Below are positions 22,901 to 29,300 of a stretch of DNA of 64,000 nucleotides, piece by piece. The DNA comes from Patellaria atrata CBS 101060 (taxonomy: Eukaryota), in the NCBI GenBank assembly GCA_010093705.1, contig MU006094.1, forward strand, positions 905,550 to 969,549, read 5' to 3'. A program made the position numbers and the translations under genes. The notes under the pieces were generated by a model that saw nothing but the letters and a program-made list of their open reading frames with translations, did not search any database and was not told the DNA's origin. Within the stretch, counting starts at the first letter, position 1, and each line of letters begins with the position of its first letter.

Positions 22901-23301
22901 CGGTGGTAAGACGAATGACCCTGAACATACTCCATTACCCTTGCTAAGCTAAGATAAAAATACATTTATTTCCTCTCCTCTGCTCTCCTCATCTGTCTTC
23001 CGCATCAAGAAACTCTCTTAACCCATGCCCACTCAGCTTTAAGATAAAGATAATCGTCTGGCACTCTCGACATACAAACCTAGCAAAAGCAGAAAAGTCA
23101 TATAGAGACACTCACAGAAGTAAAAGAAAATTTGGTTTTCCCTTCCATCGAGAAGAAAAACATACCCTTTGTTTTTTTTAGACCGGATGAGAAAAATGAG
23201 AACCACGATACGCAACCAATTGCACGCCATGGGAAACATCTGAAAACCTCCTCCCTGAATCATTGCATCACATTTAGGGGGCGGAAGAAGCGGAATTGTA
23301 T

Positions 23302-25245
23302 CTACTTCGCCGCGGGAGCTGTGGACATGTAGCTATCGGGGGCGATGCCTTCGGCCGGGAATTCGCTGTGGCGTGATTAGAAATCTGGATATGTGAAATA
23401 CTGGAAGAGATGAAAAACTTACGGCATGGCGACCTCAAAGCGTCCTTCGATCTGCTTCAAAACCTCCTGATCTTGCTCACTGCTCACGAACGAGATACTG
23501 AGACCCTTGGTACCGAAGCGGCCAGCACGACCAACTCGATGAAGGTAGGAATCTGCATCAGCGGGGAGATCGTAGTTGATGGCAAGGTTGATGCGTTCGA
23601 TATCGATGCCACGGCCGAAGACGTCTGTTGCAACACAGATACGCTTGTTGAACTCCTTAAATTCTGTGTAGCGACGAATGCTAATCAAGTATCAGCATGT
23701 TAATGGAATGACAATGATCGGGGTAGACGTACCGTTCTTCTTGGCTAACACCAGAGTGCACTGCAATGCTAGGGAAGTTGCACTCACGAAGGAGTTTATC
23801 GAGCTCAGTGGCACGGATAGTGCTCTTGACGAAGATGATGACCTGGTTAAATTCCAAAGTGTCCAAGAGGTCATTGAGCTTCCTATTCTTTTCACCTTCA
23901 GAAAGCTTGATGTAGTATTGCTGCAATCCGTGCAGCGTCAGCTTCGTACTGTCATCAACGTAAATCTCGAGAGGGTTTTGCATGAACTTCTTGCAAATCG
24001 GGCGCGTCTCTTGCGAGAGTGTCGCGCTGAACATCATCACTTGCTTCTGAGTGGGAGTAGCGCGGAAAATCTCCTGTACATCCCGACGCATGTCTTTGGG
24101 GATGTTAGCAAGGTCTAAAGTCTAAGACTTAAAACTTACCAATCTGATCTAACATCTTATCACATTCATCAAGAACGAATTGCCTGATGCTTCCGAGACG
24201 AAGCTTCTTGTCTCGAACTAGCGCATTCAAGCGACCGGGAGTTGCGACAATGATATGAGGATGTGTCTCCTTCTTGCTAAGGGTTTCAATGTCATTTTGA
24301 ATGGGGGTACCACCGTAAAAGACAGACACCTTGACATGGGGTAGATATTTCCCGAATCGAGAATATTCGTTCTTGATTTGATAAGCCAGCTCACGGGTGT
24401 GGCACATTACCAGGACCGATGTTTCGCCGTCAATAGGGTCGACTTGCTGAAGAGTAGCAAGGACAAAAACTGCAGTCTTACCAAGACCGGATTTGGCCTG
24501 GCAAAGAATGTCGGTACCAAGAATTGCTTGGGGGATTGTAAGTTGCTGAACTGTATGTAGCAAGCCGGAAGTTAGAATATAATTGATCGTCCAAGAGCGA
24601 AACGTGTGAAAGCAGAGGACGCGTTAACGTCCATCCATCTCGTGAGTATATCGTCGATTCATAACACCACTAGGATAATTCTACAGTAGTTCGATTTGAC
24701 ATGTTGTTCATCCACCTTTCGGAACCAACACCGCTAGCTCTTCACGGCCACGTAAGCAGCCTAGAGTGACCCCGGAAGCTTTTTGAAAAGTCTTCAGTCC
24801 TTTTGCCACAGGTGACAGGACATCAAGGTAGGGGTGGTGTCCAAAAGGATGTCTTGATGAGTTGACGATACTGCCGTCAAACAAGATGCCCTCGACGCTT
24901 CTAATCTTCCTCGTCTCCATACAAATTTTGATAACTCGCATCGAACGATAGCCGCAGAGATGGATGGACGGTAACGCGGAGGGAATGAGAGCTTGGGGAT
25001 GATGATTATGACTGACCCTCCGATGGATGTTCGAACCCGTTGTCCGTTACGGCACGCAGAATTTCCGTGCTGAGAAGGAAATCCTTGAATACGGTCGAGT
25101 GGATGCCGACATAGCTGCCCTTCTTATCTCCAGTGGTTCCACTGGCAGCTTTATCTCCGTTAGAGCTTACAAGGTTCCCAGAAGGTGCATCGTTGGTTCC
25201 TATCTCCTCGTCGGAATAGTCGATTAGGTCCTCTTCGTGAGACAT
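23302..25245 (-). CDS. SUB2: DECD-box RNA helicase SUB2/UAP56; 4 introns, the first at 25016-24551 (466 nt)
   Basis: [65 protein letters not shown]. Confidence 0.97.
24620..24978 (-). other. Structured intronic element in SUB2 intron 1, bounded by a 22-nt inverted repeat
   Basis: 24620-24641 CGCGTTAACGTCCATCCATCTC vs 24957-24978 GAGATGGATGGACGGTAACGCG (21/22 complementary); internal hairpins. Confidence 0.75.
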
Positions 25246-25590
25246 GTTGCGATTGAAGAACGAGAGTAGTTAGGCGTGGTCGGGGTAAGAAGGTTGATTT
25301 ATGTTGCGTTGCTCTGGCTTTCGGCGCTTAAAGTAAATAGTGGTATCGGCCTCTACCTAGAAGTGGCTTTGGATGAACGCGTCGTGGGTTGTTTGTTTTT
25401 GGATGGTGAAAGGTAAAGAAAGTTTGCAAGAAACAAAGAACGAAGGAAGGAAGGAAGCCAAGGCCAAGGCAACCATGCGAGAACGGCCATTGCTGACTTA
25501 TCAAACTAAGGCCGCAATAGGATTAGTGGACTTGGCGAGAACGACCAATATCAAACTTCAAATGGGCATCCTACTAGTAAGTGTAACACG

Positions 25591-26229
25591 ATGGGCAAAG
25601 GTACCGCTGTCAAGAAGGCCAAAAGTGTGCCCAACCGGCACTTAAATGCTCGGATATCTTACTTGCATCAAGCAGCTAGTTACTTAGAGGCTATACAGAG
25701 TCCAATCTTAAAGCATCAAGGTTATGGGGTACAATCCAGCTCCGTAACTGACATCCAATCTGTCATTGAACCTCAACAAACCACGAGCGCGGTTCAGTTG
25801 TGCGAAGGAGCTTTAGCTAAGGATTCGCACAATTTCAGGAACAATATCCGAGATACAAATCAAAGGCCGGGTTCTTCGTCTAGGATACAAGACAATCCCA
25901 TCGAAAGTAGTCAATCCACCATAAGGTTAAAACCTTTATCATCAGGACTTCACCGATATTACCTTGCTACTGCCCGAATAACTGCTCGAAAAGCCGTTGT
26001 CCGCATCTCTCCTTCCGTAAAGCGCACAATGTGTAAACGTTGTGACACTCTCCTTGTTCCTGGCAAAACTTCTAGACTACGAATAGAAAATGCTAGCAAA
26101 GGAGGTAGTAAACCATGGGCCGATGTTTTGGTTGTTGAGTGCCTGGAGTGTGGAATGCTTAAGCGGTTTCCAGTGGGGCAGAACAGCAATTTCGCAAAAC
26201 TGGTCGAGTTCGAGAAGACTGGGGGATAG
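25591..26229 (+). CDS. RNase P subunit Rpr2/Rpp21 (Rpr2/Snm1 family)
   Basis: HLNARISYLHQAASYL; RISPSVKRTMCKRC..LVPG..VECLECG..KRF zinc ribbon. Confidence 0.88.
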   Translation: MGKGTAVKKAKSVPNRHLNARISYLHQAASYLEAIQSPILKHQGYGVQSSSVTDIQSVIEPQQTTSAVQLCEGALAKDSHNFRNNIRDTNQRPGSSSRIQDNPIESSQSTIRLKPLSSGLHRYYLATARITARKAVVRISPSVKRTMCKRCDTLLVPGKTSRLRIENASKGGSKPWADVLVVECLECGMLKRFPVGQNSNFAKLVEFEKTGG

Positions 26230-26397
26230 AATTCACAGGAGAAAAGTCTCAATAAACATGCATAGAGGTAGTCGTTCACCATGCCGGTTATTCCCTCAAC
26301 GCCGTGTAATGAAGTTCTGACCCATATCTATCCTGTCAATCATATCGAGCGTACCAGTACAATCTTGGAATTGTATAAACCTAACTCTAATCCCACC

Positions 26398-29300
26398 TTA
26401 ATACAATGTCCCCATCAACGGGAGATCCCTACTCGACCACCCAACCCAAAACCTAAACGTCCCACTCGGTAATACCCAATTCCCTCTCCTCGTATCCCAA
26501 TAACTTAAATCCTTCCTGCTCACGTCAAAGCTGACTTTGCTCCTTTCTCCGTTCCCATTGATCTCAATCTTCGTGAAATTCCTCAACACTCTTACCGGGA
26601 AGTCGACCGACTCCTGTGTGTCGGGATCCTTGTAGCCTTCTGGAAACCCGACATAGAGCTGTACAACTGCGGCACCTTTGGGCACTCCGCCCACGTTTGT
26701 CAATGTTACAGAGACCATGGCGTGCGTGTCGTAGAGGGAGGGATTACCGCCGGGTCCACCGCCAGCTGGGGAGAGCGGTGCGGGTTCGTTATAGCCGATA
26801 GGGTAGGGGTATTTGCCCTTTCTGATGTCCTCGGTACTATCGATGTAGGGGTAGATATATTTGTTCAGTCTCCTGAATCCCTCGGGCCAAACAGCTGTCT
26901 CAGGGTTTGGGATGCCGTTGTCGTATTTGGGAGGTGCAATAGGGTGTGTGGGACGCGGCTCCGGCAGCATGCTGTTGCCTTTCTTCTGCTGGACCATGAG
27001 ACTACTGAGATGGAACTGGGTATAGCTAAGTCCATGGCCAAACTCGTATCGTGGGGTGATATTATGTTTGTCGAAATAGCGATAGTCGATATAAAGGCCT
27101 TCAGTAAAATTTTGCTGGGGGACGATGCCGTTGGGGTAGCGTAGTATTCCGCTATCAGGACCATAGTCTTTGGCATCTTTACCAATAGTGTATGGAAGGT
27201 GCCCACTCGGGTTGACATCGCCGAAAAGAATATCGACAAGGGCGTTGCCGGATTCTTGACCAGGAAGATTGGCGAGGATGACGGCTTTGATGTTAGGGAG
27301 ATCAATCCATTTCTCCATAATAACGGGACCGATTGAGTGGATGACGACAATAACATCGCCTTCACCGTTTCCACATTGCGCTGCGACTTTGAGAACAAGA
27401 TCATCGCCATTCTTTTGTGCATAGAGGTCATTTCGATCACCACGGACGCCATTCCATTGAACATAACCTTCACCTCCATCGGAGTCTATGAAGACAAAAC
27501 AGAGATCCTGATCTTCCAAGATCTGTGCGCTTGCGTCCGGAATTTTGTTTTGTGGGAGGTCCGTGACATACACTGTTTCATTATCGAATGCACTTTTCAG
27601 CGCTTCCAAAGGAGTGATCAGGTAAGGAAACTCTACAGCTCCCGAACCCCATCCCGAAGCCAAGGTCCCTTCATTACAAGCACGGTCCTTGCAAGCATTA
27701 GGTCCATTTACATTTCCTCGAGCGTCTTCACCAAAGATGCCGACTCGAAAGGGGGTATTCTTCACTTGCCGTACGGTCTCATTCCATCCAGTACGGTTTA
27801 GTGGAAGTATGTCTCCTTCATTCTTAAGAAGGATATGACCTTCGACCGCGATCTTCCTCGCTATGTTGCCATGAGCCTCGTCGCCTTCACCTTGGACATT
27901 GATGAATTGATTGACTACGCCCGTGGCTTTATCGTCACTGCTGGGATGTAGAAGCCCAATCCGCTCATCAGTCCACGAGGAAAAGTTCGGTCCTCCGTCA
28001 CCATCCGGAGCAGGTAGAGGCCATCTATCCTTATCATCTTGACCAACATGATACCACGCAGCGACAACCCGGGTGACCATGTCGTTTAATCGTTCCACGG
28101 GGACGGATGTATTAAGAACCGCTTTCGTAAGTTGCTGACCCCAAAGAGATTTTCCATCTTGCCATTTCAGTCCGTCTCCCGGCATGCTCATATCAAGTCC
28201 AGCAAGTGCACTCGATACACCACTCCTTTGAGCAAGCCAATCACTCTGCACAAAGCCTTGAAATCCCAGTTCATCTTTCAATATACCGTTCAACAACTTG
28301 CTATTACCGCAGGCATACGAGTTGTTCACCTGGTTGTAGGAACACATCACACTAGCTACGCCCGCGCGCACACTCTCTGCAAAAGGCCATGTATAGAGCT
28401 CGTGTAGTGTCCTGTCGTCGATATTTGAAGATATCGCATTTGGAAGACCCCACTCGTAGCTTTGCCTGAAATGTTCCTGTTCGTTCCCAATGAAATGCTT
28501 CGCCGTTGCGATAATTCCTTCGTCCTGAATGCCCCTGATTGTTTGTGCAGCTGCAACGCCTTGTAGTACCGGATCTGTTCCAAAACCCTCCCAATTCCTC
28601 CCGCCAGCAGGTAGTCGTCCTAAAGGTCCCATGGCCGGACCGAGCAATACGTTCACTCCTTTCCCCTTTGCCTCCGCAGCATGAGCTCTTCCTCTTGCAT
28701 ACATTAATTCCCTATTCCAGGTTGATCCAACCGTAATTCCCGCGGGGAATGCTGTTATATTATCTGCGAATCGAATGCCCAGCGGCCCATCCTGTAAACA
28801 CAATGCTGGAAAGCCCAGTCTTGCTACTTGACCCGTATTTCCAACACACATATCCATGGCCCAACCTGTCCCAGTTGTGATATTGACCTTTTCTACCAAC
28901 GTCATCTGCCTTACGAGCTCTGCAGCTTTCCGATAACTCTCTGCCCATTGGCCGTCTGTACCACCTTTGGGGGATGGATACCAAGGAGGTGATTGTCCAT
29001 CCTCAGGAGCAGATTTGTACGCCCATATGCCACCAGCGCTCAATAACAAGATCAAAGACGCAGTAAATAGAAGCGTCAACCAACAACACATCCGACTGGG
29101 GATGAGCCATCTTCTTAGTCTATTATACGGCCGCTGTACGTTCTTTTGAGAGGAATTTGACGGTAATCTCAAACGTTCACCCTTAGATCGCGTTTTCCTT
29201 CTCTTTAGCGTTCCTTCATCATAGTTCAGTGGATCAAATTCGTCTAGATCTTCAAATTCGGAGTCCGAGGAATGGCGATATGCTGCATCAAGCGAGCTAC

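Follow-up and report, generated by a model that had tools for sequence, protein, structure and literature searches.

The first intron of the SUB2/UAP56 gene of Patellaria atrata CBS 101060 carries a long-range stem, here called P1, that joins its two ends. The same stem recurs with hardly a letter changed in loci that resemble several fungal classes, which argues, on sequence comparison, that it is an old functional element; its probable role is to control how the helicase's own message is spliced. The initial annotation had proposed a cis-regulatory element or a hosted RNA in this intron, and the conserved pairing, the single copy and the lack of an Rfam match all support a conserved cis-acting RNA structure.

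The SUB2 gene and its first intron

In the 64-kb stretch of contig MU006094.1 analyzed here (the window), SUB2/UAP56 is encoded on the minus strand, as are all of the features described below, with an ATG at 25245 in the gene model read from the sequence. Five exon pieces and four split codons give a 440 aa Sub2 with DEAD and Helicase_C domains (Pfam), and a 440-aa protein entered as 'ATP-dependent RNA helicase [Patellaria atrata CBS 101060]' matches the exon-2 peptide at 100% identity. Exon 1 (25017..25245; 76 codons plus 1 nt) is followed by intron 1 (24551..25016; 466 nt, GTCAGT...CAG), which splits the coding sequence in phase 1 between PSE and VQ, and by exon 2 (24140..24550) with the DEAD domain. 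The last 25 nt of exon 1 are near-invariant at the nucleotide level among relatives. The branch-point element UUCUAAC is at 24571..24577 with the branch A at 24572. Introns 2, 3 and 4 are 46, 52 and 57 nt, and intron 1 is, as first noted, far longer than the rest.

An in-frame TAA (25006..25008; intron positions +9 to +11) would end translation of a message retaining intron 1 after 79 aa, with the stop 9 nt into the intron, and relatives with a GTTAGT 5′ splice site have a TAG in the same frame, as read from the intron listing. A premature stop upon retention is a property of autoregulatory introns of the RPL7B and YRA1 type, and SUB2 intron 1 has it. There is also a 77-aa open reading frame within the intron (24708-24941), which we take to be there by chance because it lies in a non-conserved part of the intron.

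A long-range stem joins the ends of intron 1

In the RNA the 5′ arm of P1 is at 24957..24978 (CGCGUUACCGUCCAUCCAUCUC; 11-nt conserved core at 24963-24973) and the 3′ arm at 24620..24641 (GAGAUGGAUGGACGUUAACGCG; 11-nt conserved core at 24629-24639), so that intron positions 39-60 pair with 376-397. The arms are 22 nt each, are 95% complementary with one mismatch, and are separated by 315 nt, exactly as the initial annotation described the inverted repeat. When up to three mismatches are allowed, the arm is found at just these two sites in 64 kb, with 0.00 expected from 100 shuffles. The core in the window bears a compensatory change (CCAUCC/GGAUGG). The imperfect inward extension that had also been reported is present, with a 5′ side at 24940..24956 and a 3′ side at 24642..24658; together with P1 it gives 85% complementarity over 40 columns (24620-24658 versus 24978-24940).

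P1 begins 38 nt after the 5′ splice site, as originally given, and ends 47 nt from the branch A rather than 45 nt. The total linker around the stem is therefore 85 nt, which is the upper limit of the 42-85 nt modelled for the yeast spliceosome, and the suggestion that pairing collapses the intron to a near-normal effective size is overstated. The description of the intron as highly structured holds for the clamp stem only, because the enclosed interior (24659..24939; 281 nt inside the extended stem) folds no better than shuffled sequence (z = +0.13; 109 of 200 shuffles fold as well). The short inner complements listed earlier are present in the sequence, but they are not above chance by this same measure. 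Folding of the entire intron 1 gives z = −1.98 for the RNA strand and −2.00 for its complement.

The intron and its stem are conserved across fungi

We compared 80 related SUB2 loci from metagenome contigs (446,947 bases), which resemble Dothideomycetes, Lecanoromycetes, Leotiomycetes and Sordariomycetes; Sordariales-like, Trichoderma-like, Aureobasidium and Zymoseptoria-like loci are among those with the element. A complete intron of 410-691 nt is at the same phase-1 site in 60 of the 80, and introns 2 and 3 of these loci are 46-70 nt or absent. The arms of P1 resemble terminal inverted repeats around a segment of ~360 bp, which could point to a young insertion of MITE, introner-like or hairpin type, or to a long intron that evolves neutrally and has an inverted repeat by chance. 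A multicopy segment would have counted against the initial annotation, and we find it single in the window and in two probable source runs (X1 and X2; Logan contigs), where one contig of 11.7-21.6 kb spans intron 1 and a match to the intron of 80% or better is seen in no other contig. The flanks, GAGGA and GAGGG, do not form a clean target-site duplication. Above all, the presence of the intron at the orthologous site in 60 of the 80 loci, in several classes, refutes both the insertion and the chance reading, to which we give next to no credence. The symmetrical stwintrons and introner-like elements of the Hypoxylaceae, which have 45-55-nt terminal inverted repeats and a possibly double-stranded intron RNA (PMC8469720), are likewise fungal introns with inverted repeats near their ends. 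However, those elements are described there as multicopy, similar in sequence and at new, species-specific positions (PMC8469720), whereas SUB2 intron 1 is single copy, old and at one orthologous position. In two other runs (X3 and X4; Logan contigs) there are exon pieces of more distant relatives only.

Both 11-nt cores of P1 (GUCCGUCCAUC / GAUGGACGGAC, with no more than one mismatch) are present in 46 of the 60 complete introns, and the 3′ core in four more. Thirty-nine of the 47 unique introns can be anchored by the cores, and among these 39 positions −2 to +8 are paired in 37-39. All 76 exact core matches in the 446,947 bases fall in SUB2 intron 1 or in its expected place in cut-off contigs. 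The contiguous duplex in relatives is 15-20 bp, compared with 22 bp in the window.

P1 is the single consensus helix that RNAalifold returns from a MAFFT alignment of 25 diverse introns, with a covariation term that is small (−0.23) because the core hardly varies. Over the 19 pairs of P1 on this 25-intron alignment, 80.6% of cells are paired, compared with 34-47% when the partners are slid. The covariation score is 0.165 versus 0.117±0.013 in shuffles (0 of 500 reach it), and in 11 pairs both partners change (1 of 500 shuffles), in controls that leave the relatedness among sequences in place. The flanks of the core vary by lineage, yet their complementarity persists: each flank is a better match to its own partner than to the partners found in other lineages, both in the outer flanks (2-6 of 10,000 permutations) and in the inner flanks (17-53 of 10,000). 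The orthologous introns are thus both long and joined by covarying pairing, in keeping with the original proposal.

The core is kept in sequence rather than merely in pairing, and the two arms could in principle be DNA-level sites, with one protein-binding motif in opposite orientations (e.g. an intronic enhancer) and RNA pairing as a by-product. The counts of G-U and A-C cells on one alignment (A1), 26 and 22, leave the strands indistinguishable and so fit such sites; in 39 ungapped sequences, many of them related, there are about 33 G-U-type and 8 A-C-type cells at offsets −4 to +9. However, independent DNA sites would have no need for lineage-variable flanks that complement their own partner. 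Compensatory changes within the core, seen in the window and two relatives (L025 and L073), and a spacing of P1 that is fixed relative to the splice signals across relatives also count against this reading. We regard DNA-level sites as very improbable.

The constraint extends over the whole intron. Among 20 close pairs of loci, similarity is greater in intron 1 than in intron 2 in 19, and greater than at exon-2 third codon positions in 18. The linker, measured from the cores in 39 introns, has a median of 102 nt (range 86-209), from which the outer pairs subtract ~12-16 nt.

The interior of the intron

The interior exceeds neutral proxies in conservation, and the enclosed 200-530 nt might itself be a functional RNA (e.g. 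a stable intronic species, a platform for protein binding or a processed ncRNA), with P1 as its closing or processing stem instead of a splicing aid. Two further helices in relatives are in favor of this. The first, P2, is nested within P1 in ~24 of the 47 unique introns, with a core GAAGUCUC/GAGACUUC at about 116-146 / 238-275 and an outer part that is self-complementary but different in the Lecanoromycetes-like (GGGCGGCC..GGCCGCCY) and Helotiales-like loci (GAUCCUGG..CCAGGAUC). The second, P3, is a hairpin in ~15 of the 47 whose loop is conserved (UUUCGAC/UUUCGGC) while its stem varies. Several observations stand against a functional interior RNA. Neither P2 nor P3 is present in the window intron or in several clades, the window interior folds no better than its shuffles, and RNAalifold gives 0 consensus pairs when 17 P2 domains are aligned with MAFFT, so that the support for P2 comes from per-sequence duplexes and an alifold of nine sequences. 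Interior 8-mers common to at least 8 of the 47 introns are confined to the P2 arms and two short blocks, so that nothing there resembles the guide or boxes of a snoRNA.

Searches of Rfam 15 are in agreement. With positions 23000-26500 of the window (E up to 10) the sole match is a U7-like chance match outside the intron, and with 13 relatives (E up to 1) it is mir-1202 in exon 1, at 26 bits against an 80-bit cut-off; the intron segment has no match to a known family in either set. A functional interior RNA is therefore distinctly unlikely, and the suggestion of a hosted ncRNA is not sustained for this window, where the interior z is +0.13, conserved box-like blocks are missing and the inner helices are absent.

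A tentative helix closer to the splice sites, P0, could form between a leader CCCCAAG (24992..24998) and a trailer CUUGG (24591..24595). The pairing CCAAG/CUUGG is discernible by eye in many relatives' introns. A leader-by-trailer swap test is not significant (855 of 10,000), and the two halves are out of register in the columns of the MAFFT alignment.

Splicing of intron 1 in RNA-like contigs

Five of the contigs are RNA-like. Four are cDNA-like SUB2 contigs from which all introns are missing, and one of these aligns blockwise to a Tuber-like genomic locus with a 507-nt intron precisely removed. The fifth, L058, keeps a 455-nt intron 1 and precisely lacks intron 2, and it also lacks a 158-nt intron of the neighboring gene that is present in its 90-95% identical relative L059. 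Retention of intron 1 alone is therefore seen in one of the five, although genomic intron loss could also produce L058.

Relationship to known intron structures

Our literature search found no published SUB2/UAP56 intron structure. Neither SUB2, UAP56 nor a helicase is mentioned in Li & Breaker 2017 (main text and three supplements), and there is no mention of SUB2/UAP56 or a helicase in the main text of Gao et al. 2021, whose supplement could list the element. Rfam and two systematic screens for structures in fungi seem to have missed P1.

The closest parallels are zipper stems in introns of Saccharomyces cerevisiae, RPS17B among them, for which Rangan et al. 2025 model a linker of 42-85 nt (PMC12350175). 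By the stem and distance criteria given there (PMC12350175), P1 would itself be classed as a zipper stem, with 22 bp, one mismatch and distances of 38 and 47 nt. There are nonetheless informative departures. The yeast stems are poorly conserved as described in that text, with 20-30% primary-sequence conservation and a sporadic presence among orthologues (PMC12350175), whereas the 11-bp core of P1 is nearly invariant across fungal classes. P1 also leaves a linker of 85-100 nt, at or beyond the yeast upper limit as reported, is hosted by a helicase gene, not by one for a ribosomal protein as described there, and is in organisms whose normal introns are ~50 nt.

One known zipper stem is autoregulated: it is needed for splicing and is blocked by the gene's own product, so that excess protein lowers splicing, and this is the switch concept that we consider for P1. 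In that system the protein binds a conserved, mutually exclusive structure, whereas for SUB2 intron 1 we found no conserved alternative 'off' structure among the pairings tested. As partners for the P1 3′ arm we tried the 5′ splice site (mean z −1.1) and the exon 1 end (mean z −1.2, with a perfect 8-bp pairing confined to the window and L025/26), and we also tried kissing-loop hairpins presenting the P1 cores, in which native combinations were no better than swapped ones (6597 and 5078 of 10,000). Unlike that regulator, the SUB2 product is an RNA helicase, which could act on the stem itself. A second comparison is with YRA1 of budding yeast, in which an unusually large intron reportedly balances the level of a Sub2 mRNA-export partner, with the unspliced RNA degraded. 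SUB2 is a different gene in a different subphylum; we know of no long-range clamp stem in the YRA1 mechanism, and to our knowledge S. cerevisiae SUB2 is without an intron.

A model for P1 function

On balance we favor, by a little over even chances, the view that this is an ancient, selectively maintained long intron whose ends are clamped by P1, which acts in cis like the yeast zipper stems. The long-range duplex (22 bp plus the imperfect extension) would hold both ends of the intron, and a spliceosome tuned to 50-nt introns could then remove one of 466 nt. Were the intron left in, translation would terminate 9 nt inside it, and because a retained intron would stop translation, the formation or loss of P1 would be a natural control point for the amount of Sub2. 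A splicing-promoting effect of P1 is inferred, as is any regulation of retention, whether Sub2 or something else were responsible. The likeliest use would be negative feedback on a dosage-sensitive helicase, or coupling to general splicing capacity, and feedback by Sub2 through intron 1 is plausible. The helicase-sensing switch by intron retention and NMD that was first suggested may exist, with the early in-frame stop and the retained intron 1 of L058 as the sole hints of it.

Three observations fit a simple clamp poorly: the near-invariance in sequence of 11 bp across classes is left unexplained by spacing, the interior is also constrained, which clamping does not need, and the linker (85 nt in the window, with a core-based median of 102 nt) is at or above the yeast 42-85 nt. 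A more ambitious and rather unlikely proposal is that the intron is a Pezizomycotina-wide Sub2/UAP56 homeostat with the 11-bp duplex as the helicase's direct substrate or clamp site. Excess Sub2 would open or lock P1, a 0.4-0.7-kb intron would become unspliceable, and the message would decay. If so, it would be a protein-sensing RNA switch that is read by helicase activity and not by aptamer binding.

The invariance of the 11-bp core on both strands also suggests a sequence read-out beyond pairing alone, and P1 might instead be the recognition site for a putative dsRNA-specific factor (an RNase III/Dicer-type nuclease or another dsRNA-binding protein) acting on the unspliced SUB2 pre-mRNA. Such a factor would cut or mark the pre-mRNA, with the invariant core as its sequence determinant, and the length of the duplex, 22 bp in the window and 15-20 contiguous bp among relatives, is consistent with this. 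We know of no dsRNA factor with this specificity and consider both the site and its proposed role quite improbable.

Sub2/UAP56 is a core, dosage-sensitive splicing and mRNA-export factor, and under the favored clamp reading P1 would act on the helicase's own pre-mRNA, at a fixed distance from whose splice signals it sits. Intron structures usually drift fast, and it is rare for one to keep a duplex all but unchanged in sequence in loci that resemble at least four fungal classes. P1 raises the questions of how a conserved 0.5-kb intron is dealt with by organisms whose introns are 50 nt and of whether an RNA helicase can regulate itself via RNA structure, and it can be used as an annotation marker for the correct SUB2 gene model.

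The SUB2 gene and its first intron

SUB2/UAP56, which encodes an RNA helicase of mRNA export and splicing, is transcribed from the minus strand, with its start codon read from the sequence as ATG at 25245, the end of exon 1 placed by the gene model at 25017, and a 466 nt intron 1 (GTCAGT...CAG) extending from 25016 to 24551 in phase 1, between PSE and VQ codons. These intron bounds agree with the initial annotation, as do the gene call itself and its suggestion of a Pezizomycotina genome: the exon pieces encode DEAD and Helicase_C domains (Pfam), the peptide from exon 2 matches at 100% identity a 440-aa protein named 'ATP-dependent RNA helicase [Patellaria atrata CBS 101060]' with SUB2 of other Dothideomycetes as the next-best matches, and the window's exon model likewise gives 440 residues. 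The remaining three introns are short, as had been noted (46, 52, and 57 nt).

The divergent upstream neighbour is a plus-strand gene (25591–26229) whose product belongs to the Rpr2/Rpp21/Snm1 family of RNase P/MRP subunits (Pfam PF04032, E = 6e-26); the starts of the two genes are ~350 bp apart. The exon 1 peptide (25018–25245) has several unusual substitutions relative to the sequence common to at least 60 relatives, and these fall in a normally invariant stretch directly before the helicase core. The final 25 nt of exon 1 (25017–25041; TGCGGTTTCGARCATCCNTCGGAGG) are nearly fixed across classes at the nucleotide level (window and 46 other unique loci), synonymous positions included (GGT, CAT, TCG), which suggests an RNA-level constraint adjoining the 5′ splice site.

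A long-range stem joining the ends of intron 1

The ends of intron 1 are joined by an inverted repeat of 22 nt with one mismatch (24620–24641 and 24957–24978), exactly of the position and size first reported, and the imperfect inward extension described with it is also present (85% over 40 columns). We refer to this stem as P1. No further match to an arm with up to three mismatches occurs in the 64 kb (0.00 expected). In the RNA, the 5′ arm starts 38 nt past the 5′ splice site; the 3′ arm ends 47 nt ahead of the branch A (24572) of UUCUAAC. The initial annotation also described the intron as highly structured, which is not borne out: the 281 nt enclosed by the extended stem have a folding z of +0.13 relative to shuffles, and the whole intron reaches z = -2.0 at best on either strand. 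The further inner complements that it listed do exist, although at this interior z they are not above chance. What sets this intron apart is a single long-range stem, P1, and not a high degree of structure throughout. The 3′ arm of P1 shares its outer half with a local hairpin at 24617–24632 (GGACGUUAACGCGUCC), a potential competitor of P1 in this species; no similar hairpin is seen in the relatives.

The long intron and P1 in related loci

Querying a collection of metagenome contigs with the peptide of exon 2 yielded 526 relatives, and we retained the best 80 as loci for comparison. Sixty of the 80 have a complete intron 1 of 410–691 nt whose phase-1 position is that of the window, 13 are on contigs ending upstream of exon 2 (although one so counted, L058, in fact contains the whole 455 nt intron 1), four are cDNA-like and lack all introns (1.8–2.3 kb), and three (L075–L077) have an intron of 169–257 nt at another site. 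In these last three, whose nearest named protein is from Lipomyces, the first intron lies six codons upstream, after DCG, is pyrimidine-rich, and has neither the clamp stem nor the core motif. By nearest named protein only, and thus approximately, the loci are Dothideomycetes-like (Myriangium, Aureobasidium [98–100%], Venturia, Aplosporella, Mycosphaerellales, Pleosporales), Lecanoromycetes-like (Peltigera, Stereocaulon), Leotiomycetes-like (Lachnellula, Bisporella), Sordariomycetes-like (Sordariales, Trichoderma), Pezizomycetes-like (Tuber [95–98%], Pyronema/Tricharina), and Orbilia-like (one). Every genomic-looking locus has an intron 2 of 46–70 nt and either no intron 3 or one of 47–62 nt, so that the pattern of one long intron and the rest short is a conserved property of SUB2.

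In most introns the strongest inverted repeat is P1, with the same sequence. Both 8-nt cores (CCGTCCAT and ATGGACGG) are present with at most one mismatch each in 39 of 47 unique introns (46 from the loci plus the window). Counted by locus and allowing no more than one mismatch, the two 11-nt cores occur together in 46 of the 60 complete introns, the 3′ core occurs alone in four, and ten have neither. These ten are six Pezizomycetes-like introns, the Orbilia-like locus, and L063, L068, and L073, the last three having an inverted repeat of 19–29 nt with a different sequence in the same place as P1. With ungapped anchoring, the 11 core positions (GUCCGUCCAUC / GAUGGACGGAC) are paired in 37–39 of 39 sequences and barely variable; in the window, CCAUCC / GGAUGG replaces CCGUCC / GGACGG. 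Beyond the core the sequence is lineage-specific and the two sides are still complementary (e.g. GUAUCCGUCCAUCCCA / UGGGAUGGACGGAUAC in L012 and CCAGCCAUCUCGGAAGCGAAGCGU / ACGCUUCGCUUGCGAGAUGGCUGG in L073).

RNAalifold on a MAFFT alignment of 25 diverse introns (763 columns) finds P1, with 11 pairs, as the sole consensus helix. For a 19-pair version of P1 on this alignment, 80.6% of cells are paired as opposed to 34–47% with partners slid by 1–3 columns, the covariation score is 0.165 compared to 0.117±0.013 in shuffles (0/500 reach it), and 11 pairs change on both sides (1/500 shuffles); the variable flanks also prefer their own partner over those of other lineages (21 lineages, flanks <60% alike), with the native value reached in 2–6 of 10,000 permutations for the outer flanks and 17–53 of 10,000 for the inner, and while kinship of the sequences inflates these covariation and permutation tests, the slid-partner control, which retains kinship, agrees in direction (score at most 0.094). 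Three independent measures agree in identifying P1 as conserved and covarying, and the comparison of orthologous introns proposed at the outset supports both the long intron and its pairing. A kissing model, with the cores in local hairpin loops, found no support.

The geometry is similar across the 39 anchored introns, with a median of 51 nt separating 5′ splice site and core (IQR 48.5–55.5), 50 nt from the core to the branch A (IQR 46.5–53), 338 nt in the enclosed loop (range 195–531), and 21 nt from the branch A to the intron's 3′ end (range 16–25). Across 446,947 bases of fungal DNA the 11-mer and its complement have 76 exact matches, every one of them in SUB2 intron 1 or its expected place (seven are in cut-off contigs, where intron 1 would lie), and the core motif is therefore private to this intron within the sampled DNA.

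Mobile elements and known RNA families

Two origins raised by the initial annotation, a multicopy MITE and a known Rfam family, find no support. The segment is single copy in the 64-kb window, each of two sequencing runs (X1 and X2) that completely cover the stretch and are its possible source gives one spanning contig (21.6 or 11.7 kb) and no further contig matching intron 1 at ≥80% likeness, and there is no clean target-site duplication at the repeat flanks; copy number was judged by such indirect means (window, contigs of the two runs, and orthologous loci), and we reject a MITE. An introner-like or stwintron-type repeat was also rejected, by comparison with PMC8469720. Rfam 15 has no match in the window intron at E up to 10, the corresponding introns from 13 relatives have none at E up to 1, and a snoRNA host was rejected. 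Both runs contain a second contig, of very low depth (3–5 versus 323–450), which matches 25010–25125 with 21 differences and covers the end of exon 1 followed by a leader resembling that of the window's intron; it probably derives from a related fungus present in traces in that library.

The remainder of the intron

When fairly close relatives are compared in 20 pairs, likeness is greater in intron 1 than in intron 2 for 19 pairs and greater than at the third codon positions of exon 2 for 18, with conservation peaking in ~60 nt at each end and at 0.6–0.8 inside. The leader past the 5′ splice site (GTYAGTCATAA..TTTCNTCCCCAAGCTC) is kept in several groups including the window, and a purine-rich block ahead of the branch point (CTTGGAG / TTCGGGR) is likewise kept across several groups. 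The two could form a short helix, P0, beside the splice signals, although a test of this pairing was not significant.

Two inner helices are present in some relatives and absent from the window intron. P2, nested within P1, is in ~24 of 47 introns (e.g. L010, L013, L018, L020–22, L024–26, L028, L029, L032, L034, L036, L042, L043, L046, L049, L052, L057, L067), at intron positions ~106–146 and 238–275, with a core GAAGUCUC/GAGACUUC; the outer part comes in two versions, each self-complementary and each in a different clade, a clade-level compensatory switch. P3 is a hairpin in ~15 of 47 introns, in Dothideomycetes-like and Lecanoromycetes-like loci (e.g. L004:3663–3704, L010, L016, L025, L055; intron positions ~128–180), whose stem varies and covaries and whose loop (UUUCGAC/UUUCGGC/CAUCGAC) is conserved. 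The universal elements are the long intron, its ends, and P1, with a lineage-specific inner architecture.

Splicing and retention

One of the four intronless contigs, L033, can be aligned with Tuber-like genomic loci as five blocks and precisely lacks their 507 nt intron 1 and three short introns, which indicates that the long intron is removed at its predicted junction. L058 (1–3028) provides a different example by comparison with its 90–95% identical relative L059, the two being 95% identical without gaps from the end of exon 1 through intron 1 and exon 2. L058 retains the 455 nt intron 1, precisely lacks the canonical 55 nt intron 2 of L059, and also lacks a 158 nt GT..AG intron that L059 has in the convergent downstream gene. 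The simplest reading is that L058 is a partly spliced transcript keeping only intron 1, and it may instead be a genome with two intron losses. A retained intron would end translation after 79 residues, at a TAA at +9 of intron 1.

Possible roles of P1

SUB2 intron 1 is a single-copy, ancient, and constrained long intron that is removed in mature RNA. By analogy with the yeast zipper stems of PMC12350175, P1 would loop out the interior and bring the 5′ splice site within reach of the branch point, and this closeness would make the long intron spliceable. P1 qualifies as such a stem by position and size, with a linker at the yeast limit, and differs from those presented there in four respects: how deeply its sequence is conserved, the lineage and the gene that host it, and how far the intron exceeds normal introns in size. 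P1 may further be a control point for Sub2 dosage, since losing it would promote retention and hence an early stop. In RPL7B, a zipper stem is used in such control by the gene's own product, and a DEAD-box helicase such as Sub2 would have an obvious means of acting on the duplex.

Neither the near invariance of the 11 bp, which holds for both strands, nor the interior's constraint is explained by the zipper reading, and for this reason we keep three alternatives in play. The intron may contain a hosted RNA or a platform, to which the interior constraint would be relevant; P1 may be the site of a dsRNA-specific factor; and, more weakly, its arms may be DNA-level sites. A literature search found no published description of a SUB2/UAP56 intron stem, and the gene is unmentioned in the main texts of two systematic fungal structure screens and in the supplements of one, the other being judged on its main text. 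P1 is a real and old structure, and its function is a well-posed experimental question.
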